A stretch of DNA of 32,000 nt from Candidatus Saccharimonadota bacterium. GTDB lineage: Bacteria > Patescibacteriota > Gracilibacteria > UBA4473. The first letter of the stretch is position 1, and every line of letters begins with the position of its first letter. The translations under genes and the position numbers were made by a program. Positions 3,780 through 32,000 of the stretch are shown in pieces. A model generated the notes under the pieces. That model searched no databases. It saw only the letters and a list, made by a program, of their open reading frames with translations, and was not told the DNA's origin. The stretch covers positions 660,001-692,000 of the forward strand of contig JAUIFI010000001.1 in the NCBI GenBank assembly GCA_030429505.1, read 5' to 3'.

Positions 3780-4568
3780 TTAGTGGACTATAAGTTGGGC
3801 GTATTCTATTGAGGTTCCGGTTCCAGAGTGGAACCTAATCTGGTACGAGCCTCGGGGTATATTTTGCGTTGGAATTGCCATCTCACTGTTGTATCCACCA
3901 AAACTATGGAATACCACTCTCCCCATGAGGTCATATATTGTGACCTTACAAGGAGTTTCAAGAGAAGCCGTTACAACATCGCCTTTTTCGACTGGGTTCG
4001 GATGGACCGAAATGTCGAGAGGGGCCATGTCCAGAACGCTTGTTGATATGCGGTTGATCACTTTTATCATTGCAAAGTCGAACTTAAAGTTCCAAAATCC
4101 TCCATTCTCCATACGTCCCGCAGCGATGAGCGAAGGACGGAAAAAAATTAGAGAATCTGGATCTTCGCTTTGATAAAGGTATTCAGTCTCTTCTATCGGA
4201 ACAGATAGTGATATTATTCTTGAAGAATCAGTCTTTTCCTCAGAAAAGTCTGTTTCCTTAAAAATATCTTTTCCAAAAATTTCCGCCACGGAGATTTCAG
4301 AGTAAATCCCACTGAGAGGGATAAGTTCTCTGAAAACTACTCTGTCTATGGACAAATAGAATTGAAGCTGGTTATTTGTAGTCGCCTCAAACCTGAATTC
4401 CATTTCGTCCTGATAATGGACACTCAGCGTATCACCAAAGCACTTATCGTAAATATAAACGCCTGCTCTGACATGATGTTCCCATGGATCACACCTATTA
4501 TGCTGAGCTATAACAAAGGATACAGAGGAAATCAATACGACAAAAGATAAAAAGAAAAGCCTTTTCAT
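3780..4568 (-). CDS. Secreted hypothetical protein with a T9SS-type C-terminal sorting-domain-like tail (paralogous tail to 1785..2690)
   Basis: Signal peptide MKRLFFLSFVVLISSVSFVIAQ. The tail is ISVHPNPVEKGDVV...VTIYDLMGRVVFHSF...IPRGSYQIRFHS. Both proteins have ISTSV just before the tail. Confidence 0.6.
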   Translation of the reverse strand: MKRLFFLSFVVLISSVSFVIAQHNRCDPWEHHVRAGVYIYDKCFGDTLSVHYQDEMEFRFEATTNNQLQFYLSIDRVVFRELIPLSGIYSEISVAEIFGKDIFKETDFSEEKTDSSRIISLSVPIEETEYLYQSEDPDSLIFFRPSLIAAGRMENGGFWNFKFDFAMIKVINRISTSVLDMAPLDISVHPNPVEKGDVVTASLETPCKVTIYDLMGRVVFHSFGGYNSEMAIPTQNIPRGSYQIRFHSGTGTSIEYAQLIVH

Positions 4569-14199: not shown

Positions 14200-15285
14200 T
14201 TAGAAAGTAACTAAATCCTTCTCCACTTCTTGCGAAACAAAAGTTTTTCCTTCTTTTTTCTCACCTGCAGGTTCAGATATTTGCATTTGATGAAGTTTTA
14301 AGTATTTCGAAACATCTTTAAAAATTATATTTGCTAGTTGTCTTGCAAATTCAACTGGCACTGCATTTCCAATCATTTTATATCCATCCGCAACATTATC
14401 ATATTTAAACAAAAAACAATCCGGAAAAGTTTGTATTCTTGCGCATTCACGAACAGAAAGCCTTCTGTATAAATCTTCTTTTCCAGGCACAAAAGCCCTT
14501 TTATTCTGCTCAATAAATTTCATTTTAGGAGCTTGTGGATGAATTGGAGCATGGCGACCTCCTGCTTGAATAGTAAAACTTGGCTCATCCCAACTTCTGA
14601 CACGATTTCTTGACATATAAATAGTAGAAAAACCACCATTCATATACTCGTGATTAAGAGCAGAAAGTTTTTCATTTCCATTAGTATAGTTTTTTTCTTT
14701 AGCAGGTTTTGCAGGCCCTAAATCCCAAATAGCATCTTTGAGAGTTTGTCTTGGTAATATTTCTTTTGGAGAACTAAAAGTTTTCCCTATTTTTTTATGG
14801 TATCCCACAATGATAACCCTTTTTCTATCTTGTGGAACTCCGTAATCATTCGCATTTAAAAGAAAATACGAAACATTGTAATTTAAAGACTTAAACTCAT
14901 TGAGAATATTCTGAAATGCTTCTTTATGTCTTGAAAGGAGAATACCTGAAACATTTTCCGCCAGGAAAAATAATGGTTCTTTTTCTTTTAAAATTCTTAT
15001 ATATTCATAAAAAAGTTGTCCTCTTTTATCGTTTATCCCTCTTCCTGCCCCTGCTTCACTCCAGCTTTGACATGGAGGACCACCAATAATTCCTACAGAA
15101 TCAGGAACATCAGAGCTAGGGACATCAATAATACTTCTTTTGTCTAAATGAGTCTTTGGAAAATTATGTTCAAAAGTATCCCAAATTGTTTTATCAAATT
15201 CATTTGCAAAAATAGTCTCAAAACCTGCTTGATGAAAGCCAAGATCAAGACCACCTGCACCGCTAAAAAGAGAAACTATTTTCAT
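14200..15285 (-). CDS. DNA (cytosine-5)-methyltransferase, M.HaeIII-like (predicted GGCC specificity)
   Basis: Motif I LFSGAGGLDLGF, IV GGPPCQSWS, VI FLAENV, VIII QDRKRV and X GNAVPV. The variable region (NHEYMNGGFSTIYMSRNRVRSWDEPSFTIQAGGRHAPIHPQAP) is collinear with the M.HaeIII sequence as I recall it. Confidence 0.95.
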   Translation of the reverse strand: MKIVSLFSGAGGLDLGFHQAGFETIFANEFDKTIWDTFEHNFPKTHLDKRSIIDVPSSDVPDSVGIIGGPPCQSWSEAGAGRGINDKRGQLFYEYIRILKEKEPLFFLAENVSGILLSRHKEAFQNILNEFKSLNYNVSYFLLNANDYGVPQDRKRVIIVGYHKKIGKTFSSPKEILPRQTLKDAIWDLGPAKPAKEKNYTNGNEKLSALNHEYMNGGFSTIYMSRNRVRSWDEPSFTIQAGGRHAPIHPQAPKMKFIEQNKRAFVPGKEDLYRRLSVRECARIQTFPDCFLFKYDNVADGYKMIGNAVPVEFARQLANIIFKDVSKYLKLHQMQISEPAGEKKEGKTFVSQEVEKDLVTF

Positions 15286-16274
15286 GATTCTTTCTGTCTA
15301 TGGACAATATTTAGAGTGTTTTTATACAAACTTTTTGGAGACTTTAAAAGGTTGACATCAAACTTTAATGAAGGCTCAACTCTTGAGCTCGCATTATGAA
15401 TTCTAAAAGATAAAGCCCAATCATTATTAAATTTCACGATAACCGTTGTTTGAGAATTTTCTTTAAAAGAAATATCCGTTATTTCTGTTGGAAGCAAAAC
15501 CTGTGGTGTTTTATATTTTGGCTCAATATCCTTGAAAGAAAGGTTTAGTGTTCCATTTATATTATAGGCATGTATTTCAACGGTATTTTTACTTTTTATA
15601 ACTTTGTAAAAATCTTGATTTCCGGTTAAATAGGCAACAAGGTTTCTTGATATTTCTTTCGGATTTTCTTCATGCAGTCTTTTAAGTTCTGTTACAAATG
15701 CTTGCAGTATTGGAACATATACTGAAGAATGATGATCTTCAAGCTCACTCCACTTTGCAGTGGCATTACTTTTTTGACGGATTTCTTTTAAGTTTTTAAA
15801 AATAGGAGTTACAGAGTCAAAATATTCTTTTGAAACTTTTCTATTAAGCCATTTATCTCCAAAATCTATATCAGCAGAGAGTCTTGAATGTTTAACCGCT
15901 TTATGATTATTTTTGGCAGATACTCCAATTTCCCATTTTTGCAAAAGTCTTATCGCAAGAACGTCTCTTACGTCTCCATTTTTTCCGTGATCGTCTGACA
16001 ATATCTCTAACTGTAGAATATCTTCCTTTCCAATATCATTTGAAAGCCTAGGTTCAATATCCATAAGAAAGTTAACGGCAAAACTTGCCGAAATAAGATA
16101 TTCACTTTTTTCTATTTTGGTCACTTTTTCAAAGCAATCCTTGGCAATAATAAAAGCTGAATTAGCAATAACTTTTACGTTTGTTTTATTTCTTAGCTTT
16201 TCCTCAAATTGAATAAGAAGAGCATATTCAAAAGACTTTCCAGTAATCATTTGCTTTGAAATTCTTATTACCAT
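15282..16274 (-). CDS. Probable type II restriction endonuclease partner of the methyltransferase
   Basis: A 330-aa ORF whose TGA overlaps the methyltransferase ATG (ATGA, 15282-15285). It has the same low-GC composition and matches no housekeeping family. The endonuclease call rests on context only. Confidence 0.6.
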   Translation of the reverse strand: MVIRISKQMITGKSFEYALLIQFEEKLRNKTNVKVIANSAFIIAKDCFEKVTKIEKSEYLISASFAVNFLMDIEPRLSNDIGKEDILQLEILSDDHGKNGDVRDVLAIRLLQKWEIGVSAKNNHKAVKHSRLSADIDFGDKWLNRKVSKEYFDSVTPIFKNLKEIRQKSNATAKWSELEDHHSSVYVPILQAFVTELKRLHEENPKEISRNLVAYLTGNQDFYKVIKSKNTVEIHAYNINGTLNLSFKDIEPKYKTPQVLLPTEITDISFKENSQTTVIVKFNNDWALSFRIHNASSRVEPSLKFDVNLLKSPKSLYKNTLNIVHRQKES

Positions 16275-22118: not shown

Positions 22119-22520
22119 CTAGGTCAAATCAAAGAAAGGATTATACGCCACCTCCCACAAATGCTCATCCGGATCAGAAAAATAACCTGAATATCCACCC
22201 CAGAAAACTTTCTGCGGCTTTTTAATCAACTTCGCCCCAGCATCAAGAGCTTCTTGCATCACCACATCGACTTCTTTTTCAGAGCCAACGTTATGAGCCA
22301 ATGTCACTCGACGAAAGCCACTACCATCAGAAGAAATTTCAGCATCTTCTGCCAATTTATCCACAGGATAAAGCCCCAACCATGTCCCCTCCAGCATAAA
22401 AAAACAAACACTATCCGTATCCTCACCATCTTTCAGAGGAAACCCAAGTTTTTGATAAAACTCACGAGACCTTGAAATGTCAGCAACACCGAGAGTGATA
22501 AGAGAAATTTTGGGCTTCAT
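22119..22520 (-). CDS. VOC (glyoxalase/bleomycin-resistance/dioxygenase) superfamily protein
   Basis: MKPKISLITLGVADISRSREFYQKLGF...FSDPDEHLWEVAYNP is a typical VOC pattern. The start is taken at the internal ATG (22520) rather than 22604. Confidence 0.8.
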   Translation of the reverse strand: MKPKISLITLGVADISRSREFYQKLGFPLKDGEDTDSVCFFMLEGTWLGLYPVDKLAEDAEISSDGSGFRRVTLAHNVGSEKEVDVVMQEALDAGAKLIKKPQKVFWGGYSGYFSDPDEHLWEVAYNPFFDLT

Positions 22521-22598
22521 AGTGGAATGATAGCAATATTTCTCCCGAAAAAGAAGGTCGTGTACAATACACTTACTATTTCTTTTTTCTTTATCATT

Positions 22599-22982
22599 AT
22601 GCAAAAAAACCCTATCGGCTGGATCGAAATACCTGTGTCTGACTTAGACAGAGCAGAAAAATTTTATACTGATTTTTTTAGTTTTAAATGTGACCGTCAA
22701 CCGGAAAAAGATGGTTACACCATGAGCTGGTTTCCAATGGATATGAAAGGCTACGGATCAGCCGCCACTCTCATGCACGGAAAAGGTTACGCCCCTTCTC
22801 ACGAAGGACCAATCCTCTACTTCACAGCTCCCGAAGGACGTGTCGATAAAGCGCTGGAAAAAGCAAAAAAAATGAATATCAAAATCCTGCTCCCAAAAAC
22901 TGACATCGGAGAACACGGCTTTATGGCTTATATCGAAGATTCAGAAGGAAACAGAATAGCCATACATTCGATGGAGGGATAA
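22599..22982 (+). CDS. VOC (glyoxalase-like) superfamily protein
   Basis: IGWIEIPVSDLDRAEKFYTDFF...GFMAYIEDSEGNRIAIHS. The start is taken at the ATG at 22599 (MQKNPIGW). Confidence 0.8.
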   Translation: MQKNPIGWIEIPVSDLDRAEKFYTDFFSFKCDRQPEKDGYTMSWFPMDMKGYGSAATLMHGKGYAPSHEGPILYFTAPEGRVDKALEKAKKMNIKILLPKTDIGEHGFMAYIEDSEGNRIAIHSMEG

Positions 22983-23048
22983 AAAACATCCCCCATTAAA
23001 CGAGAATCTAAACAGGAAAAAAACTTTTCTCCAGTCGTAAGCTTATAC

Positions 23049-23435
23049 TCATTTTTTATTTCCATTTAAATACTCATTAACTTTTCTGACCACATCATTA
23101 AGCGTCCAATCTATTTTAACAAGATAATCATAGACTCCATTCCTCATAGATCGAACAATACTGTCATGATCTTGAAGGTTAGTCAGCATAATAACACCAA
23201 TATTTTTCCCTCGTTTATCTTCTCGCAACTTCTGAAACATCGTCAGACCATCCATCTTGGGCATGACTATATCAAGTAAAATCATATCAGGAGAATTTAA
23301 AAGAGCCATGCGAAGACCATCTTCTCCATTACTACATTCTACAATATAAAAACCTTCTTTTGAGAATTTATCTCGCAATGCTTCACGAAGTGAATCGTCA
23401 TCTTCGACAATAAGAATGGTCTTTTTAGTAGTCAT
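23049..23435 (-). CDS. Single-domain (CheY-like) response regulator
   Basis: Receiver motifs ILIVEDDD, the phospho-acceptor context MILLDIVMPKMDG, and a conserved Thr in VIMLTN. There is no output domain, and the 4-nt overlap with the kinase gene suggests coupling. Confidence 0.9.
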   Translation of the reverse strand: MTTKKTILIVEDDDSLREALRDKFSKEGFYIVECSNGEDGLRMALLNSPDMILLDIVMPKMDGLTMFQKLREDKRGKNIGVIMLTNLQDHDSIVRSMRNGVYDYLVKIDWTLNDVVRKVNEYLNGNKK

Positions 23436-25849
23436 TCTTTTTCGTTTAATTTTTTAATCCCTTTTTTAGATTTCATGCCTTTTTGAGGCAAAGTAACAAA
23501 GAAAGTAGTACCTTTATTCTCCTGAGATGTGAACCTGATTTCTCCCCCGGCTTGTTCAACGATAGATTTTACGAGATAAAGTCCCAATCCATTACCTTCC
23601 GTATCTTGCTGTTTGACATTGTCAGCCCTAAAAAGCTTCGTAAATATTTTATCAGCTTGACCTTTGGGGATCCCATATCCGGTGTCTGTTACTTGAATGG
23701 AAATATCACTCCTTTTCTTTTGAACAGAAAGTTCTATTTTTCCTTTTTCAGGAGTGTATTTGACTGCATTAGAAAGTAGGTTTTGAAAAATAATTCGGAT
23801 GAGTTTTGGATCAGCGGATAAGACAGGAAGTTTTTCATCATATTGTGTGATAATTTTGAGATTTTTTTCTTTTATATCAGGGGCAAGTTCTGACAAAACA
23901 CTTTTTGCGGTTTCTTTGAGATCTACATCTTCAGGATCAATTGCTAGAGTACCCAACTCTATCCGCGATACATTGAGCAACGAGTCAACGAGCTTGACCA
24001 TACGCTTATTACCATCATAAATCTGCTGGACATATTTTTTTTGTTCCTTACTGATTTTTCCAGCATCACCATCGAGCAGCATAGCCGAAAACCAATTGAT
24101 CGCTGACAAAGGTGTACGCAATTGATGAGAAGCGAGTGAGACAAATTCTGTTTTGGCTTTATCGATTTCTTTGCGTTTGGTGATATCCTGCTGGATACCG
24201 AGATAAAAAATATTTTTTTTGTTTTCTTGGATAGGAATAACAGACAGCTGAACAGGATACTCTGATCCATCTTTTCTTTTATTTATAATATCCTCGGTTT
24301 GAAAAACTTGTCCCTTTTCGATCGATTTCCACATTTTGGTGTAGACTTCAGGATTAGTTTTCCCGCTCCTCAAGAGAGCGGGTTTTTTGCCAACTACGTC
24401 TCTCATCAGATAACCATTCATAGCCTCCCATGCTTTATTGACATAGATGATAAACCCTGCGGGATTGGTGATAATGATTCCGTCTGTAGATCGTTCAACA
24501 GCTTGTTGAAATTTCTTGGTTTCTCGTATTTGCTGTTGCATTTTTTCTTTTTCTTCTGTGATATCTTCGAGAACGTTCGCAAGAGCCTTTTGTGTGTCTT
24601 CTAGATCAGCATTTTGTTTTTGCAGGTCTTTTGTTTTTTCAAAAATCCCTTTTTCCAAATTATTGTATATTTGATTGAGTGTCTGAGTCATACTAAAAAA
24701 GGCTCTCGCTAACTGTCCTATTTCATCTTTTTTTTCCAAAAGGTCGGATGGAAATTCTGCATTTCGGTTTCCTTTGGAGATTGATCGTGCTAAACGAGTT
24801 ATTTTTTCCAGAGGACGAGCAATAGACTTTCCGGCAAAGAAGGTCACGATAATGGTCAGCGGTATAAAGAGAATAGTAATAAAAAAAGATCTTTGTCTCA
24901 AATCCCATAAGGGCTGAAGTAAATCATCTTCGTCAATGACTTTAAAGAGTATCCAGTACTCGTTTCTGTTCTGTGGATTATAAAATATTTTTTGCCATAT
25001 TCTCCACTTCTTTTCTTCTGAATCATAACTGTCAAATATATTATGACGGGCAACATCATCAATCAACTCGGGTTGTTCCAAAAAATAATTATAAGTGTGC
25101 GTTCCTAATTGATCACTAAAAAGTTTATTCATGTCAGGATGAATTAAAAACTGACCTTGTCGATCAATTAATATGGTTTCTAACGCACCATTAACTTGTG
25201 TCACTTTTCGCAGTATACGCTCAGCAAAAATGTTCATAATAACAGCTCCTTTTCGTTGTCCGGTTTCTGCATCAAAAACAGGAATACCAAATCGTAGTAC
25301 TGGCACATAGGGAATCTGAATAACTTCATTTTCTACATTGAGATCTAACGGAGATACATAAACAGAATTTTTTGAAGCTCTCATTATATCTCGAAAATAA
25401 TATCTATCGCTTTTATTCTGCAATTCTGACTCAGCGGCAATACGAACTGTTTCACCAATTTTTTCAACCCGGATCATTTCCTGCCCTTTTTCATCCAGAT
25501 AACGCATCTGAAAGATATCAGGATCTGTTTGAATTTCGGCAAAAAATATCGTTTGAAGACGTTCTTTCCACTGCTTGAGTGTACTTTGGTCGACCGGATC
25601 AATCCCAGTTTCACGAGCACGAATGATCCCCTGAATCGGAGGATAAAGGGCTGCAAGTTTCGCTTTAGAAGCGAAAGCGTCCAAAAGATTTTTAATAGTC
25701 GAACCTTCTTCACGAATAACCGTGTGATGAATAAGTCGAGCCTGATTTGAAATAGTCTCTCTAGTATTAGGGAAAATCAAAACCCACTGGATAATAACGG
25801 CTGGTACTATTGAGGCAAAAAGTAAGAGTAGGATCAGATTTTTTTTCAT
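23432..25849 (-). CDS. Sensor histidine kinase (TM, double-Cache-like periplasmic domain, TM, HAMP, PAS, HisKA, HATPase_c)
   Basis: H-box FVSLASHQLRTPLSAI, N box LLSNAVKYTP, G boxes DTGYGIP and GNGLGLYLV. HAMP is KSIARPLEKITRLA...EIGQLARAF and PAS is TDGIIITNPAGFIIYVNKAWEAMNGY. The extracytoplasmic region is Cache-like (YYFRDIMRASKNSVYVSPLDLN...PVLRFGIPVFD). Confidence 0.9.
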   Translation of the reverse strand: MKKNLILLLLFASIVPAVIIQWVLIFPNTRETISNQARLIHHTVIREEGSTIKNLLDAFASKAKLAALYPPIQGIIRARETGIDPVDQSTLKQWKERLQTIFFAEIQTDPDIFQMRYLDEKGQEMIRVEKIGETVRIAAESELQNKSDRYYFRDIMRASKNSVYVSPLDLNVENEVIQIPYVPVLRFGIPVFDAETGQRKGAVIMNIFAERILRKVTQVNGALETILIDRQGQFLIHPDMNKLFSDQLGTHTYNYFLEQPELIDDVARHNIFDSYDSEEKKWRIWQKIFYNPQNRNEYWILFKVIDEDDLLQPLWDLRQRSFFITILFIPLTIIVTFFAGKSIARPLEKITRLARSISKGNRNAEFPSDLLEKKDEIGQLARAFFSMTQTLNQIYNNLEKGIFEKTKDLQKQNADLEDTQKALANVLEDITEEKEKMQQQIRETKKFQQAVERSTDGIIITNPAGFIIYVNKAWEAMNGYLMRDVVGKKPALLRSGKTNPEVYTKMWKSIEKGQVFQTEDIINKRKDGSEYPVQLSVIPIQENKKNIFYLGIQQDITKRKEIDKAKTEFVSLASHQLRTPLSAINWFSAMLLDGDAGKISKEQKKYVQQIYDGNKRMVKLVDSLLNVSRIELGTLAIDPEDVDLKETAKSVLSELAPDIKEKNLKIITQYDEKLPVLSADPKLIRIIFQNLLSNAVKYTPEKGKIELSVQKKRSDISIQVTDTGYGIPKGQADKIFTKLFRADNVKQQDTEGNGLGLYLVKSIVEQAGGEIRFTSQENKGTTFFVTLPQKGMKSKKGIKKLNEKE

Positions 25850-25868
25850 AGATAAGAGAATATTACCC

Positions 25869-27404
25869 CTAAGAATCCGAGGATTTCTTTTTCTTTTCTT
25901 TGACTGATTTTTTCAGTTCTATCATTTTCATTTCTCGTCCAATCATGACTTTATTGAGCTTTTCTAGTGATTCTTTTTGCTTTCGGATTTGTTCGTCTGA
26001 TTTTTTACGAACAGTGATATCTTGGGTTTGTGCTACAAAATACAAAGGTGTTCCCCCTCTATCTCGAACGAGGGAGACATCTAAAAGAACCCATATGATA
26101 TTTTTTTTCTTGTGAATATAACGTTTTTCTGACTGGAAGTGAGCGACTTCTCCGTTGATGAGTTTCTTCATCAAGTTCATACAGCGATCTAGATCGTCTG
26201 GGTGAGTTAGAGATTGAAAACTCATCTTGAGAAGTTCTTCTTCACTATATCCAAGAATGTCACAAAGTGCTTTATTGACCTGAATCCATTTACCTTTGAG
26301 AGAGACAAGTGCCATACCGACGGGAGCATTCTGAAATGCTTGCGAAAACCTATTTTCACTCTCCTCTAGTGAAGATTGAGCTTTTTCTGTCTGAAGCGAT
26401 GTCCGATACTGATGGAAAAGCAAAAAACTAATTATACTCAGGAGAAAAATACTAGCACTTGCGCTAATCAAGAGAGAGAATAAAGGAAGTTGTGTATGAA
26501 ATCTTTCTTCCATTTCTACTGAAGATTCCCAGAGAATTGTCCAAACATTGTTTCCAAGTTCTAATGATTTTTGAATACTAAATCGTGGAGAATGATTTGC
26601 ATCAATTATTTTTTTATAGATCAGGTTATCGTTGGTAATGTTTGCTTGGTCATAAACCGAAAAACTAAGAAAACTGTCAGTATTAATAATATCTTGTAAA
26701 AAGTTTTCCCCCACAAATGGAGCATAAACCCATCCCTGCAAGGCTTCTCGTTTTTGTATTACTGTTTCTACGGGCTTGCCTTTCTCATAGACTGGCAAAA
26801 GGAGTAAAAAACCTGCTTTTTTTTGTTGATCCTGTACGAGCTGGATTATCTGGGTGATGGTAGCTTTGCCACTATCACGAGCTTTCTCTGCTGCAAAGCG
26901 TCTATTGGCTTCACTACCAATATTGAGTCCTACTGCTTCCTTATTGATCTCAACTGGTTCGATAAACAAAATAATGTAGTCTTCCTTATAATCTAAGTTA
27001 CCAATGTTGGTAATTTTGAATTGTGGATAATCATCTTCTCGTGCCAATTGCACAAAATTTTCTAGATCATCTTTTGACACCACTTGAATGTAACCAATAC
27101 CGTTAATACCAGGATAGTGCTGATTGACTTTTAGCGCCTGAACATAAGCTCCCCACTCATTTCGTTCTACACTTTGCGAAGCATTAAAGAGACCCACCCC
27201 TCCCCATAATCCTTCCTCATAAAATAACATTCGATTTTGGATGGCTGTTTCCGAGTCATGCACGATATCCAAAAAGAGTTCATAAGACTCTTTTTGTTCA
27301 AATTCTTTTGTTTTTTGATATATAAAGATATTTGTTGCAAAAAGAAATATCAAACACATCCCCCAAACTCCCCAGTAATTCAGTTGTTTTTTGTTTTTTT
27401 TCAT
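25869..27404 (-). CDS. CHASE-PAS sensor protein lacking any transmitter/output domain
   Basis: Order is TM, CHASE (YPGINGIGYIQVV...EPVEINKEAVGLNIGSEANRRFAAEKARDSG...LLLPVYEKG), TM, PAS (APVGMALVSLKGKWIQVNKALCDILGY), then a roughly 40-aa coiled-coil tail and the stop. Confidence 0.85.
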   Translation of the reverse strand: MKKNKKQLNYWGVWGMCLIFLFATNIFIYQKTKEFEQKESYELFLDIVHDSETAIQNRMLFYEEGLWGGVGLFNASQSVERNEWGAYVQALKVNQHYPGINGIGYIQVVSKDDLENFVQLAREDDYPQFKITNIGNLDYKEDYIILFIEPVEINKEAVGLNIGSEANRRFAAEKARDSGKATITQIIQLVQDQQKKAGFLLLLPVYEKGKPVETVIQKREALQGWVYAPFVGENFLQDIINTDSFLSFSVYDQANITNDNLIYKKIIDANHSPRFSIQKSLELGNNVWTILWESSVEMEERFHTQLPLFSLLISASASIFLLSIISFLLFHQYRTSLQTEKAQSSLEESENRFSQAFQNAPVGMALVSLKGKWIQVNKALCDILGYSEEELLKMSFQSLTHPDDLDRCMNLMKKLINGEVAHFQSEKRYIHKKKNIIWVLLDVSLVRDRGGTPLYFVAQTQDITVRKKSDEQIRKQKESLEKLNKVMIGREMKMIELKKSVKEKKKKSSDS

Positions 27405-27411
27405 AGAGTTT

Positions 27412-27894
27412 TTACAAACTTACCTCAATAGTTTCTGACAATTCAGCATCAGGTGCACATACAGTTACACGTTTATTCCCATCGCTTGTAATATGATATC
27501 CGGCACCATTAGAAGTTGCTCCTATAGGATCAACAGGAATTTTTACCAGATACTCCTTATCGGCAGTTAATTCACCTAAGCTAACTAGATTATCACAACT
27601 AGCTGCATCAGTTCGACAAATTTCATTCGAAAAAAGATTTTCACAACTTCCGACAGGAATATCTGCAGGGAGTTCTCCATTGTTATCAATGGCGTATTGA
27701 TAAACAGCATTTATGATGGTTGAAATATTAGCTTGTCTTTGTGCATTTTTGGTTTGACTGAGCTGTTTGCTGGGATTTATAGCTATGATGATAATGCTCG
27801 CTAATATGGCAATAGCAGCTACAACGAGAAGTGTTTCGATAAGAGTAAAACCGGATCTTGGTGAGCGAAAACAATAATTTTTTTGCATGAGCAT
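27412..27894 (-). CDS. Type IV pilin/pseudopilin (PilE-like; could be the major subunit)
   Basis: Class III signal RSG|FTLIETLLVVAAIAILASIII, which carries the prepilin N-methylation motif with Glu5. Confidence 0.85.
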   Translation of the reverse strand: MLMQKNYCFRSPRSGFTLIETLLVVAAIAILASIIIIAINPSKQLSQTKNAQRQANISTIINAVYQYAIDNNGELPADIPVGSCENLFSNEICRTDAASCDNLVSLGELTADKEYLVKIPVDPIGATSNGAGYHITSDGNKRVTVCAPDAELSETIEVSL

Positions 27895-27954
27895 AAGAAA
27901 TGAATATTACCATGATACCAAACCCTTTCGGGATTGAAAAATATTAAATTTGCA

Positions 27955-28359
27955 TTAAAAATCAGCTACTTCTGTCCATGAATGAAGAACTATTTGGGGG
28001 GTAATGCTAGAAATAGTAACTTGTGTTTTTCGGATTATACTGCCAGCTGTGCCAGTAGCTGTGACACTACGTGTTTCTCCTCCTGTATTGGTTACGGTAT
28101 AAGTACATGTTCCTGTAGGGAGAGTGACATTACCAGAGCCAGAAAAAGAAGTATTCGTTCTGACTTGTTCCAAGGCTTGCTCTGCGCAGGTATTACTCAA
28201 AGACTTGGCTTGGAGTGATTGTTGAAGTGTGAAGCTAGAACGTGAAGAATCGAGTCCCAAAAGAAGAAGTGATACAGTAATTGATACTCCAACAGCGCCT
28301 ATAATCAGGATGCTCAGGAGCATAATATAGCCTTGTTTTCGGTTTGGTATTTTAAACAT
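27955..28359 (-). CDS. PilX-like minor pilin
   Basis: N-terminus RKQG|YIMLLSILIIGAVGVSITVSLLLLG lacks Glu5. It is followed by the helix ...AKSLSNTCAEQALEQV, as in PilX N-terminal domains. Its position in the operon also fits. Confidence 0.6.
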   Translation of the reverse strand: MFKIPNRKQGYIMLLSILIIGAVGVSITVSLLLLGLDSSRSSFTLQQSLQAKSLSNTCAEQALEQVRTNTSFSGSGNVTLPTGTCTYTVTNTGGETRSVTATGTAGSIIRKTQVTISSITPQIVLHSWTEVADF

Positions 28360-28363
28360 AGGT

Positions 28364-28897
28364 TTAAGGATAAAATCTCAAGGAAGCAGAACTAGTAAAT
28401 GTCTTTGTGAAATCGTATTCGTTTCTTGATCCAGGATTTGTATGGGTAAGTGTTAATTGGATTTGAATAGTACCCGGAGTATCAATTCGAGAAATGTTTT
28501 CAAAAGTAAGATTCGAGACAATCACTCGATCAGAAGTCAGGCTTATAGCACTACCTACGCCTTCAGTGATGCGAAGAGTTCCATTCGATAGGTCGAAGAT
28601 AGTCGGATTTTGTTCAGCATTACTCATGGACAGAGAAAGCGTTGATCCACTATCCCCATTGGTGGGAATAGTGATAGCTTCAGCATTTCGGATAGCTTGG
28701 GTAATGATTTGCATAGTTTGAATCCCTTGTTGTCCGACTTCGGCAATAGTTTGGTTTTTTATTTTGGCTTGGATAAGTGTCCAGTAGAGAGTGGATATAA
28801 CTATGAGCATTCCTCCTGCGAGTGCTATGTAAAGCAACAGCTCGACAAGAGTAAAGGCATATTTTTTGTGTAGGGAAGATTGCAAAAAAATGGACAT
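28364..28897 (-). CDS. PilW-like minor pilin with an atypical -1 residue
   Basis: KKYA|FTLVELLLYIALAGGMLIV has Ala instead of Gly at -1 and keeps Glu5. There is a 1-nt overlap (TAATG) with the upstream gene. Confidence 0.7.
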   Translation of the reverse strand: MSIFLQSSLHKKYAFTLVELLLYIALAGGMLIVISTLYWTLIQAKIKNQTIAEVGQQGIQTMQIITQAIRNAEAITIPTNGDSGSTLSLSMSNAEQNPTIFDLSNGTLRITEGVGSAISLTSDRVIVSNLTFENISRIDTPGTIQIQLTLTHTNPGSRNEYDFTKTFTSSASLRFYP

Positions 28898-31104
28898 TAG
28901 TAGGGTTTGAAAATAAGAAGCTCTTGGTTGTTATCGGTCGTAGTTATAAAGGCAGTATTATTGCGTACAAATATTGAGGTTGGTCGACCGGCAAGACTGG
29001 TGATACTCAAGGATATAGGAGAAACGGGAGAGGTCACATCAATCACCTGAAAACCATTGATGTCTCGATTTACCACGATAAAAGCCTTATTATTATCGAC
29101 AAAGATATCATTCACATCGTCTCCTAACTCAAGTCCATTCAGATTCATCACTATCGGAGACAAAGGATTGGTAATATTGATGATGTAAAACTCTCCGGAC
29201 TGATTAACCGCATCTTTGCCCACATACGCATAGTTTCCATCGACAAAAACTGCACTTCCAGCAGAGTTATTAGGAAGATCAAGCGCAAACACGACGCTAG
29301 GAGAAGTAGGATTGCTAATATCAACTACTTGAAATTCTTCTTGATCATTTGCTACAGCCAGATAGGCATAGTTGCCAGATACAGTAATATCATTAATGGT
29401 ATTACCAATATTGAGTCCTCCTGACAGAGTAGGTGAAGATGGTGTCGAGACGTCCAGAATGTAAAGTTCATAGCCCGGATTTCCTCCGACATTATTGGTT
29501 GCCAAATAGGCGTAATCACCAGACACATCTATGGCTGATGTATCAGCATTACCCGATTTATTAAAGTCTCCAATCTGAGATAGAATTCCATCAGTATGTA
29601 CTATCTGTAACTCTTCACTATTATTACGTGAAGCGATGTAAGCATTTGGAAAGGAGATATCGATACCTGTAGCTCCTGATGAACCAAGATCAAGAGAGCT
29701 GGAGAGTGTCGGAGTCACTTCATTACTGACGTCAATCACATACAAATCATCCTGATTTCCTTGAAATGTTACAAGATAAGCAGTGTCATTCAGTACAAAC
29801 ACGTCCTGACCATCAGCACTAGAAGGCGTATTGTAAATCCCCTCAATCCTCGGAAATACCCATTCGGGAAGTGTCAGATCAATGTTGGCAGATTTCGTAG
29901 AACCATCAAGCATCCTAAACGTGATGGTAAAGCTCGTACTCAACATGTTTCCATCAAAACGGAAAAAATCTATATCGACTATTCCTGATGCAGGAGAGAG
30001 GACTGTATCAACGATGTCGATTTCAGTACCAGAATTTTGAGAGCCACTTGGACTGCCAGGTCCGCCGTCAGCCCATGCAGTATTATTGGCGATGTCGATC
30101 TGTTCGATTTGTCTTCCTGCTTTATTCCAAAAAGTCGTGATTGTATCAATAGTAATAGCACACGTCGGATCAGTATTCTGTACAGTTATATTTTCGAGAT
30201 CAGTAAAAAGGATTCCTCCGACATCAGCTGAACTAGTATCAATAGTCAAAGTGCTGGCTTGAAAAGGACAAGAAGGACCGGAAAAGTCGATACTAACGGA
30301 TTTTGAGCTGCCATCCGTCATAGTGAAAGTCATATCGAGAAGCACACCACTCATGTCACCATCAAATTGCAGATAATCCAAGTTTATAGCTCCGCCTCCG
30401 GCTGTCAGGGTGACATTTTGAATGTCGATTTCTACCCCCGAACTTTGTGCACCACTAGGAGTGCCTGGGCCAGTATCAGACCATACGATATTTCCATCGA
30501 TAGCCACTTCATCCATCAGGGTAAAGACATCCCAAGACACGGTTATTTTATCGAGGATAAGGTCGGTAGTACCAGTATTCTCCAGAGTAATTCCATTGAT
30601 CCTGGTATTGCCTAAGGCTAAGCCAGCACTACTGGTATCAATAATCAGATCAGTCAGATCTGATATGACTCTCTGCCAATTGGTTAGGTACATTTCAGCA
30701 CTGACAGTTCCTTGCCTTTGTGAACTTTGCTGCCAGGTAATAGTACTGGTGATATGTCTGGTTTGATCATTGATAGTGGTAATAGTGATTTGCCGAGTGA
30801 ATATATCAGTTTGATCTTGCATTCCGGAAAGTATCCATTGATTGCCACTTTTGATTATTCCATGTTTACCATTCACAAGGAGTGAAAAACTATCATCTCG
30901 GATGTTTCGGATAGCCTCCAACCCCTCTTCCGCCAACATTACCGCTCGAGCACGTTCGACTGATAGCTTTGTACTTTCTTGTCCATATAAAAAAGCGCCA
31001 ATAAATCCCATGACGATCAATCCGAGCAGTCCTGAAGCCAATACAATTTCTACCAGCGAAAATCCTGATTGGTTTGTACGGAAAAATTGAGGAGAAAAAA
31101 ACAT
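28897..31104 (-). CDS. Giant PilV-like minor pilin fused to two tandem ~125-aa modules and a seven-repeat LVIVD beta-propeller (putative pilus-tip adhesin)
   Basis: Class III signal TNQSG|FSLVEIVLASGLLGL. Tandem modules cover aa 153-277 and 286-413. Seven LVIVD-like repeats occupy aa ~431-733, e.g. GNYAYLAVANDQEEFQVVDISNPTSPSV, GDYAYLATNN..YELYILDVSTPSSPTL and NNKAFIVVNRDINGFQVIDVTSPVSP. Confidence 0.85.
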   Translation of the reverse strand: MFFSPQFFRTNQSGFSLVEIVLASGLLGLIVMGFIGAFLYGQESTKLSVERARAVMLAEEGLEAIRNIRDDSFSLLVNGKHGIIKSGNQWILSGMQDQTDIFTRQITITTINDQTRHITSTITWQQSSQRQGTVSAEMYLTNWQRVISDLTDLIIDTSSAGLALGNTRINGITLENTGTTDLILDKITVSWDVFTLMDEVAIDGNIVWSDTGPGTPSGAQSSGVEIDIQNVTLTAGGGAINLDYLQFDGDMSGVLLDMTFTMTDGSSKSVSIDFSGPSCPFQASTLTIDTSSADVGGILFTDLENITVQNTDPTCAITIDTITTFWNKAGRQIEQIDIANNTAWADGGPGSPSGSQNSGTEIDIVDTVLSPASGIVDIDFFRFDGNMLSTSFTITFRMLDGSTKSANIDLTLPEWVFPRIEGIYNTPSSADGQDVFVLNDTAYLVTFQGNQDDLYVIDVSNEVTPTLSSSLDLGSSGATGIDISFPNAYIASRNNSEELQIVHTDGILSQIGDFNKSGNADTSAIDVSGDYAYLATNNVGGNPGYELYILDVSTPSSPTLSGGLNIGNTINDITVSGNYAYLAVANDQEEFQVVDISNPTSPSVVFALDLPNNSAGSAVFVDGNYAYVGKDAVNQSGEFYIINITNPLSPIVMNLNGLELGDDVNDIFVDNNKAFIVVNRDINGFQVIDVTSPVSPISLSITSLAGRPTSIFVRNNTAFITTTDNNQELLIFKPY
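29866..30648 (-). repeat. Intragenic tandem duplication (two ~125-aa modules) in the giant pilin
   Basis: Module 1 (30274-30648) and module 2 (29866-30249) share IDTSSA..., W(S/A)D(T/G)GPG(T/S)PSG(A/S)Q(S/N)SG(V/T)EIDI, FDG(D/N)M and DGS(S/T)KS. They have diverged at the DNA level. Confidence 0.8.
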
Positions 31105-31109
31105 GTGAC

Positions 31110-31550
31110 TTAGTACTGAATCATACCTTTAGCATTGATCGTGAGAGAATGAATTTCATTGAGTGGACTGGTAAAGCTAAGCATTCCGGTGGTATTCGGC
31201 TCTCCAGATAATTTTGTAAAAACGATTTCTGTCAGCCCTGACGGGAGAAATCCATTAGGGATGGAAAATGATTCATCAAAGTTGGCATTCCGTGTCCCAA
31301 AACTCGCTCCCTGAAAAAGAGTTACTTGTCCTGTCTGAACCGATATGCCCCATGTCTGGTCACTATGTGAAGCCTGAGAAAGAAGTTGTGCTCGACGCAT
31401 AGTTTGAGCAACGATGTTGACCGCGATGCCACCTTCGTTATGAACTGCGAACGAACGGTACAAAGGAATCGAGAGTCCAGCCAGTAACGCAAATATTACA
31501 ATGGATAGAAGGATTTCTACCAGAGTGAAGCCTTTACTCGGTTTCATCAT
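31110..31550 (-). CDS. GspH/FimT/FimU-like minor pilin
   Basis: Class III signal MMKPSKG|FTLVEILLSIVIFALLAG. It is the first pilin gene of the array and ends 5 nt before the next gene. Confidence 0.8.
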   Translation of the reverse strand: MMKPSKGFTLVEILLSIVIFALLAGLSIPLYRSFAVHNEGGIAVNIVAQTMRRAQLLSQASHSDQTWGISVQTGQVTLFQGASFGTRNANFDESFSIPNGFLPSGLTEIVFTKLSGEPNTTGMLSFTSPLNEIHSLTINAKGMIQY

Positions 31551-32000
31551 TTTCTAAAAGTTCTATGTATCTCCCAATGACCCAGCCGGTTTGATTTTCT
31601 GATATCTGAATCTCATACCAACCTTCACTTTCGGTGATGTACGGATATGTCTCCCCGGGAGAGACGGTCGCAATGATATTTCCATATGGTTCTGCCCTAG
31701 CATTGAGTGAGCCAGTTCCGGTAGGAAGGATAATGAGCTTTGAAACAGACTTTTCTGGGATCGTGGTTTCTTCTGAAACCGGAGGAATGATAATAATCTC
31801 TTCTGGAATATTTCTTTCTTGTATTGGTGGTGGAGAAATGGTTTTTGGGATCGGCGCAGGAGATGTAGTACTTGTGCTAGTTGTAGTAGCATTGTTAATA
31901 TTTCCTACTAAGTTATAGATAGGTAAGATAACACTAAGAGCTACCGAAATCACTCCTCCCCAAACAATGATGAGTAAAAGAGGTTCTAAAATGACAGTGA
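31534..32000 (-). CDS. Membrane-anchored Pro/Thr-rich protein with a C-terminal SH3b domain; 5' end lies outside the window
   Basis: The frame stays open past the listed GTG (31953) to the window edge (...TVILEPLLLIIVWGGVISVALSVIL). The C-terminus GSLNARAEPYGNIIATVSPGETYPYITESEGWYEIQISENQTGWVIGRYIE is bacterial SH3-like. It overlaps the next gene by 17 nt. Confidence 0.7.
   Translation of the reverse strand, partial: TVILEPLLLIIVWGGVISVALSVILPIYNLVGNINNATTTSTSTTSPAPIPKTISPPPIQERNIPEEIIIIPPVSEETTIPEKSVSKLIILPTGTGSLNARAEPYGNIIATVSPGETYPYITESEGWYEIQISENQTGWVIGRYIELLENDETE

Follow-up and report, generated by a model that had tools for sequence, protein, structure and literature searches.

A putative modular minor pilin carrying a predicted seven-bladed LVIVD propeller in a Candidatus Saccharimonadota genome

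We analysed a 32,000-nucleotide stretch of a Candidatus Saccharimonadota genome (placed by GTDB in the Gracilibacteria, UBA4473; assembly GCA_030429505.1, contig JAUIFI010000001.1, positions 660,001 to 692,000; hereafter the window), in which a minus-strand gene at 28897..31104 encodes a protein of 735 amino acids (aa) that joins a pilin module to two immunoglobulin (Ig)-like modules and an LVIVD-repeat propeller. We favour, with somewhat better than even confidence, the reading that this protein is a modular minor pilin of a type IV pilus of the kind found in the Candidate Phyla Radiation (CPR, or Patescibacteria), and that its cargo is displayed at the pilus tip as an effector, most likely an adhesin. 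The domain architecture, the operon context and the family-wide modularity are established here, and the folds come from structure prediction; for the function, a tip-displayed effector is the most reasonable reading.

Domain architecture of the 735-residue protein

The open reading frame (ORF) is intact from its ATG start codon, and its product has a four-part layout consisting of a leader with a pilin module, two tandem Ig-like modules and the LVIVD propeller. The leader (aa 1–13, 31066..31104, on the minus strand, as are all features of this gene and its cassette) ends in Gly-1 and continues into the body of the protein as MFFSPQFFRTNQSG/FSLVEIVLASGLLGLIVMGFIGAFLY (here and below, a slash marks the prepilin cleavage site), with Phe at +1 and Glu at +5. 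The sequence around this site, NQSG/FSLVEIVLASGLLGLIVMGFIGAF, has the features of a class III (prepilin) signal peptide, namely Gly-1, a hydrophobic residue at +1, Glu5 and approximately 20 hydrophobic residues. In an alignment of 86 homologues, the three diagnostic residues (G13, F14 and E18, corresponding to Gly-1, Phe+1 and Glu5) are at least 90% conserved.

The pilin module that follows (aa 14–147, 30664..31065) comprises a hydrophobic alpha1N segment bearing Glu5, the remainder of alpha1 and an antiparallel beta-sheet. Gene order, together with weak hidden Markov model (HMM) matches to PilV (E = 0.004) and ComGE, places this conserved scaffold provisionally at the PilV/GspI position, and we refer to the protein as V-like below. 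An AlphaFold2 model was built with the alignment of 86 homologues and without Met1 (so that residue i of the model is residue i+1 of the protein), with a mean predicted local distance difference test score (pLDDT) of 91.6. In this model, aa ~17–141 adopt the lollipop fold of pilins, with an alpha1 helix of about 52 residues (17–68) and an antiparallel beta-sheet (pLDDT 84–96).

Between the pilin module and the propeller lie two copies of a module of about 133 aa that belongs to no Pfam family (module 1, aa 150–282, 30259..30657; module 2, aa 285–417, 29854..30252). Aligned with one another (aa 153–281 against aa 286–417), the copies share 41% identity over 132 aa (E = 6e-29), and both are predicted to be Ig-like beta-sandwiches (pLDDT 86–96) in two AlphaFold2 models, the second of which (aa 1–420, 20 sequences) was confident only for these two modules. 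Foldseek returned generic matches (E ~1e-5, with low TM-scores) to tandem Ig-like domains of adhesins and transglutaminases, including Als9-2, MSCRAMM N2N3 and RbmA. The two modules carry net charges of -15 and -13.

The C-terminal domain (aa 419–735, 28900..29850) matches Pfam LVIVD (PF08309) well above its cutoff (E = 1.2e-23, 82.6 bits vs 20.2) and also matches Pfam Beta_propel (E = 7e-6). Seven LVIVD-type motifs (LYVID, LQIVH, LYILD, FQVVD, FYIIN, FQVID and LLIFK) recur between aa 454 and 729 at a spacing of 44–48 aa, and in the model each of them forms strand four of a four-stranded blade, the 28 strands making up seven blades (pLDDT 86–98). The top 50 Foldseek matches in the PDB were WD40-type propellers (e.g., the seven-bladed propellers of beta-TrCP and COPI, at ~10% identity), and the predicted model reached target-normalised TM-scores of 0.6–0.8 against seven-bladed WD40 propellers. 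The LVIVD repeats are thus modelled as the blades of a closed seven-bladed propeller. The domain is strongly acidic, with a net charge of -28, and an isoelectric point (pI) of 4.2 or lower was found in all 38 homologous propellers. The Choice-of-anchor B model (TIGR04312) scored 33.8 bits against a cutoff of 100, a similarity that, judged by sequence, reflects shared LVIVD-type repeats only.

An earlier note on this DNA, made without database searches, had described a canonical prepilin signal, a pilin-sized region, two tandem modules and seven LVIVD repeats that would close into a propeller, and all of these features are borne out by the analyses above, though for the leader the curated models stay below threshold. 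Pfam N_methyl (PF07963) scores 17.0 bits against a gathering score of 21.2, and TIGR02532 scores 11.6 bits against a cutoff of 16.3, so that the prepilin motif itself carries the argument. These scores would also suit a protein that is not a pilus subunit at all, but a surface protein held by an uncleaved N-terminal signal anchor resembling a prepilin signal, and non-pilin LVIVD surface proteins do exist (e.g., P0105, ~30% identity). We give this alternative very little credence: the residues flanking the cleavage site are conserved as described, N_methyl matches 31 of 79 orthologues of the V-like protein at E ≤ 0.001, the high-confidence model has a pilin fold with its 52-residue alpha1 and beta-sheet, and in related loci the gene always sits among canonical prepilins, with PilB and PilC close by, as set out in the following section.

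The minor-pilin cassette and its relatives in other genomes

The V-like gene is the second in a tight minus-strand cassette of five pilins, with minor pilins in H-I-J-K order and a GspG-like pilin, and the gaps between genes range from -17 to +60 nt. The first cassette gene encodes an H-like minor pilin (146 aa, 31110..31550, MMKPSKG/FTLVE) with an N_methyl match at E = 1.4e-7 and weak GspH and ComGD matches, and is separated by 5 nt from the V-like gene. The stop codon of the latter overlaps by 1 nt with the gene for a W/J-like minor pilin (177 aa, 28364..28897, KKYA/FTLVE), which occupies a conserved position and has weak N_methyl, ComGF and ComGD matches. After a further 4 nt comes an X/K-like minor pilin without Glu5 (134 aa, 27955..28359, RKQG/YIMLL; weak ComGG match) and, after 60 nt, a fifth pilin (160 aa, 27412..27894, SPRSG/FTLIE; N_methyl E = 1.4e-5, GspG E = 2.7e-7), which is GspG/ComGC-like and could be either the major pilin or a PilE-like subunit. 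The weak NCBIfam matches of the minor pilins run ComGD/GspH, PilV/ComGE, ComGF and ComGG, which is the H-I-J-K order, and all are far below the curated cutoffs. Both the gene order (H-, V-, W- and X-like plus a fifth pilin) and the lack of a separate pilY1 had been proposed from the sequence; our scan agrees, none of the window's scanned ORFs having a PilY1/PilC domain. The GspH-I-J-K, FimU-PilV-W-X and ComGD-E-F-G sets likewise consist of four successive minor-pilin genes in this order, with no Glu5 in the fourth, but the cassette described here carries its bulky extra domain on the second (I-like) subunit and not on K.

Homologues of the 735-aa protein number 140 at E ≤ 0.001, and those with names come nearly all from CPR/Patescibacteria (Gracilibacteria, Uhrbacteria, Jacksonbacteria, Wolfebacteria, Paceibacteria and Parcubacteria); several are annotated by NCBI as prepilin-type N-terminal cleavage/methylation domain-containing protein. 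At E ≤ 1e-10, the pilin module alone retrieved 1,137 representatives of 50% identity clusters, in which it is always N-terminal and which range in total length from 135 to 1,300 aa. A scan of species-representative genomes (GTDB) yielded 135 relatives, and 80 loci were kept (L001–L080), the top match being L001 from Ca. Altimarinota (47%).

Gene order in these 80 loci is nearly invariant, consisting of a prepilin of ~150 aa, the V-like protein with variable cargo, a prepilin of ~170 aa, a Glu5-less protein of ~135 aa and one or two prepilins of ~150 aa. The H-like neighbour upstream of the V-like gene is conserved in nearly all of them, and the fifth pilin also keeps its position, though other loci often have it in duplicate. 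In 56 of 57 related loci the X-like fourth protein lacks Glu5, its N-terminus following the conserved pattern G/[YF][IV]TL[IL]SVL, so far as sequence goes a match to the GspK/PilX rule in a very distant lineage. A Pfam survey of the neighbourhood (12 loci with 100 neighbouring ORFs, considering families matched by at least two ORFs) found a PilB-type ATPase (T2SSE plus MshEN) and PilC (T2SSF) directly upstream in all 12 loci. The PilY1 family was not among the families recovered in this survey, and each surveyed locus had one T2SSE ATPase, with no second, PilT-like ATPase seen.

The cargo of the V-like protein varies widely among the 80 loci: it is a propeller in 36, a middle module plus propeller in one (37 loci with a propeller in total), a middle module only in eight, and large cargo of some other kind that matches no Pfam family in 11; in the rest it is short or absent. 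Further members of the family carry two propellers, a propeller with FN3 arrays, or FN3 with middle modules. Scaffold identity between the window protein and its relatives is 51–62% irrespective of cargo, whereas the propellers share only 31–37% (except in the two closest homologues), which indicates that the cargo has either diverged more than the scaffold or been exchanged. The propeller HMM matched V-like ORFs only and never a separate ORF within 10 kb on either side of the V-like gene; on the question of fused versus split genes, fusion is therefore the rule. From these sequence comparisons, the cargo appears to act as an exchangeable effector on a conserved scaffold.

Three further observations concern these loci. 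The eleven V-like scaffolds with other large cargo carry 200–455 aa of C-terminal sequence that matches neither Pfam nor the propeller and middle-module HMMs; V-like ORFs of this kind, 514–623 aa long, occur in L046, L047, L057, L065, L070, L072, L073, L078 and L079, with two such genes in tandem in L065. The Pfam-less Ig-like middle module is also found on the gene after the V-like one (L002:9582-10580, L003:11163-12161 and L044:11358-12797), the carrier in L002 and L003 being the W-like pilin (332 aa), which indicates that the module moves between different minor pilins of the cassette. Finally, the CPR-type cassette occurs in metagenome-assembled genome records titled 'uncultured Gammaproteobacteria', 'Bdellovibrionales' and 'Pseudomonadales' (binchicken assemblies) and in one titled 'Weeksellaceae' (e.g., L010, L012, L013, L019, L025 and L040); these records are probably mislabelled or chimeric bins.

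Proposed display at the pilus tip and comparison with characterized pili

We propose that prepilin peptidase would cleave the 735-aa protein after Gly13, and that the pilin module would then take the second, PilV/GspI position of the H-I-J-K-like cassette, where it would use its alpha1 helix and beta-sheet to join the H-like and W-like subunits and the X-like one that lacks Glu5 in a priming complex. The cargo, two Ig-like beta-sandwich spacers followed by the seven-bladed LVIVD propeller, would project outward and be shown at or beside the tip, where it would recognise a host-cell or surface ligand, either glycan or protein. HIJK minor pilins are known to form a quasi-helical priming complex that ends at the filament tip and is capped by the Glu5-less K, and both GspK and PilX lack Glu5 and cap the tip (PMC7541494). 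Since the X-like 134-aa protein lacks Glu5 as GspK and PilX do, it is probably the tip-most subunit, with the V-like fusion sitting below it. Anchoring of the fusion at the pilus tip, as the earlier note envisaged it, is supported insofar as a pilin-anchored propeller is encoded in a minor-pilin cassette, but the tip-most place itself probably belongs to another subunit.

The closest functional precedents are pilins with grafted modules. In monoderms without PilY1, modular pilins bearing grafted adhesive modules have been proposed to serve as tip effectors (Shahin 2023, PMC9934059), and PilB and PilC of Streptococcus sanguinis are modular pilins of this kind, working as adhesins at the tip (PMC8179133, PMC9934059). 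Like the 735-aa protein, these S. sanguinis pilins consist of a small pilin module with an effector grafted on via a short linker, and the complex that they form is located at the tip, in a species that lacks PilY1 (PMC8179133, PMC9934059). The cargo folds differ, however (vWA in PilB and lectin in PilC of S. sanguinis, Ig-like modules and an LVIVD propeller here), and the GspI-like PilA of S. sanguinis is not modular, whereas here the cargo is on the I-position subunit of a complete H-I-J-K-like set. A second precedent comes from within the CPR: PilX2 of Nanosynbacter lyticus TM7x (Saccharibacteria) is a minor pilin with a C-terminal heptabladed propeller, for which PilY1 was discussed as an analogue, and its deletion halves host binding while filaments still form (Grossman 2024, PMC11623550). 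PilX2 likewise belongs to a five-pilin locus and is a proposed pilus adhesin. Its propeller is annotated with RCC1 repeats, in contrast to the LVIVD repeats here (a comparison by published description); it was reported without a predicted PilD signal, whereas the 735-aa protein has a canonical G/FxxxE; and it lacks the tandem Ig-like spacers, of which the 735-aa protein has two.

Rather than an adhesin, the propeller might be a cap with a structural or regulatory role (priming assembly, opposing retraction or docking another secreted protein), which would be closer to that of the C-terminal domain of PilY1 or of CofB, which recruits CofJ. Such a cap would fit a fusion on what is putatively the I-position subunit, since that subunit nucleates HIJK complexes (PMC9934059), and about half of the closest scaffold orthologues bear the propeller, which could thus belong to the core of the machine. 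Moreover, propellers of the seven-bladed, WD40-like type typically serve as platforms for protein-protein interaction. We nonetheless consider a cap unlikely. In many orthologous cassettes the V-like pilin is bare or carries different cargo, the propeller being often absent or replaced, which argues that it is dispensable for assembly, and PilX2 of TM7x is not needed for filament extrusion (PMC11623550). The faster evolution of the cargo than of the scaffold also suits an outward-facing effector.

More doubtful still, in our judgement, is a Com-like competence pilus or pseudopilus for the uptake of DNA or nutrients, with the cargo binding DNA or another substrate as proposed for ComZ of Thermus. 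The best (sub-threshold) NCBIfam matches of the four minor pilins, ComGD, ComGE, ComGF and ComGG, do follow the order of the comG operon, the single T2SSE ATPase per surveyed locus fits as well, with no PilT-like second one seen, and CPR bacteria rely on scavenged nucleotides. The strong acidity of the cargo, however, in both the propeller and the middle modules, argues against direct DNA binding, and the propeller-bearing pilus of TM7x did not contribute to competence (PMC11623550).

Several results weigh against a tip-displayed modular pilin, in addition to the sub-threshold leader scores given above. With a predicted TM-score (pTM) of 0.60, the AlphaFold2 model built from the 86 homologues does not predict the relative orientation of the domains. 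The assignment to the I (PilV/GspI) position comes from gene order and sub-threshold HMM matches only; the pilin module had no significant match among PDB sequences, whether the query was one sequence or a profile of 35, and the profile found no minor pilin. The best matches were a spurious one to LT-IIB and N-terminal helix matches to geopilin and PilA, and GspI was not listed among the Foldseek matches of the models. To our knowledge, LVIVD repeats have no known function. The remaining 27 kb of the window contained no PilB, PilC, PilD, PilT or PilY1 gene, and the cluster abuts the window edge.

The protein had also been likened to a PilY1-type tip adhesin, a comparison that we can support only as an analogy. 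PilY1/PilC proteins of Pseudomonas, Neisseria and Myxococcus are likewise large and tip-associated, have a seven-bladed propeller and are encoded with fimU-pilVWX-type minor pilins. The PilY1 presented by the priming complex of diderms is a non-pilin, however, whose conserved C-terminal propeller docks on minor pilins (PilX) and whose variable N-terminal domain is exposed (PMC7541494, PMC8179133), while the 735-aa protein starts with a class III signal and a pilin module of its own. The carrier in PilY1 is thus the propeller, but here that part falls to the pilin module and the propeller becomes the cargo, so that the analogy is inverted. The 735-aa protein gave no Pfam match to Neisseria_PilC/PilY1 (PF05567/IPR008707) at E ≤ 1, and PilY1 was not among the top 50 Foldseek PDB matches of the model. 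The likeness to PilY1 is at best a functional one.

The earlier note knew of no characterised fusion of pilin and LVIVD propeller, but the fusion is not a novelty, given the architectures in Raynaud 2021, the NCBI prepilin annotation, Shahin 2023 and Grossman 2024. In the sense of Raynaud 2021, the 735-aa protein, with its pilin module, two Ig-like modules and LVIVD propeller, is a modular pilin. Dataset S1 of that study contains about 30 IPR012902 proteins in which one to thirteen copies of IPR013211 follow the pilin domain, and an 860-aa Falkowbacteria pilin with IPR013211 was described there as having a 'motif of unknown function' (PMC8179133). A database look-up identified IPR013211 as the LVIVD repeat. 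The design of a pilin with LVIVD repeats is therefore already known in outline and is common in ultrasmall CPR bacteria; our literature search for LVIVD together with pilin found no dedicated study, and none of the LVIVD-type pilins has so far been the subject of experimental characterisation. What has been least described is the LVIVD type itself, its place on the I-position scaffold and the spacer modules.

Neighbouring genes and possible implications for host recognition

On the same strand, the cassette is flanked upstream by a gene for an SH3_3 protein (139 aa, 31534-31953), which overlaps the H-like gene by 17 nt. The N-terminal half of this protein is of low complexity and rich in Thr, Ser and Pro, and 26 related loci have an SH3 homologue on the same strand, upstream of their cassette. 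Downstream, the fifth pilin gene is separated by 7 nt from that of a CHASE-PAS protein (511 aa, within 23049-27404), which is followed after 19 nt by a PAS histidine kinase (805 aa, within 23049-25849) overlapping by 4 nt with a stand-alone receiver protein (128 aa, within 23049-25849) at the end of the run. Among the related loci, 38 have a kinase homologue on the same strand, at most 6 kb downstream of the V-like gene (the downstream sequence is 5 kb or longer in 56 loci), and 48 of 66 have a receiver homologue upstream. Because these homologues recur, the two-component system seems to be a conserved part of the CPR pilus operon. A scan of 22500-32000 for promoters and terminators gave counts no higher than in shuffled sequence.

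Gracilibacteria and Altimarinota are lineages known for genetic code 25, which we considered since the closest matches are labelled Gracilibacteria. It was rejected: TGA ends the histidine kinase and response regulator genes (23049-25849), and table 11 leaves the long ORFs intact, so that the organism uses the standard code.

Elsewhere in the window, a complete HaeIII-type restriction-modification pair at 14200-16274 (minus strand; C5 cytosine methyltransferase, E = 1e-93; HaeIII endonuclease, E = 3e-96) lies in a stretch of low GC content (0.32–0.33 vs ~0.40 elsewhere), which suggests horizontal acquisition. A 262-aa protein at 3780-4568 (minus strand) carries a Por_Secre_tail domain (the C-terminal sorting signal of the type IX secretion system; E = 5e-7), which is unexpected in a member of the CPR, this signal being typical of Bacteroidota.

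CPR bacteria are obligate episymbionts whose recognition of hosts is largely unexplained, and type IV pili are their best-supported attachment organelle. Our data suggest that one conserved minor pilin carries the variable, outward-facing part of such a pilus as exchangeable cargo, and that the cargo of the V-like gene could be a host-recognition determinant of CPR episymbionts. With the LVIVD propeller as the commonest cargo among the closest relatives, this reading points to a defined candidate gene for host specificity and suggests what the LVIVD repeat might do. The principle behind it had been published before, both for modular pilins replacing PilY1 and for the propeller pilin of TM7x, and the gain is incremental rather than conceptual. 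A broader generalization, which we put forward tentatively and regard as possible rather than likely, is that a single orthologous PilV/GspI-position scaffold, in a syntenic pilB-pilC-H-V-W-X-A cassette, serves as a universal CPR socket for host-recognition cargo (LVIVD propellers, Ig-like modules, FN3 arrays, double propellers and unmatched domains), with the LVIVD propeller as the commonest host-binding module. If this were true, host range could be readable from, and engineerable through, the single V-like gene, and the LVIVD repeat family would gain its first function.

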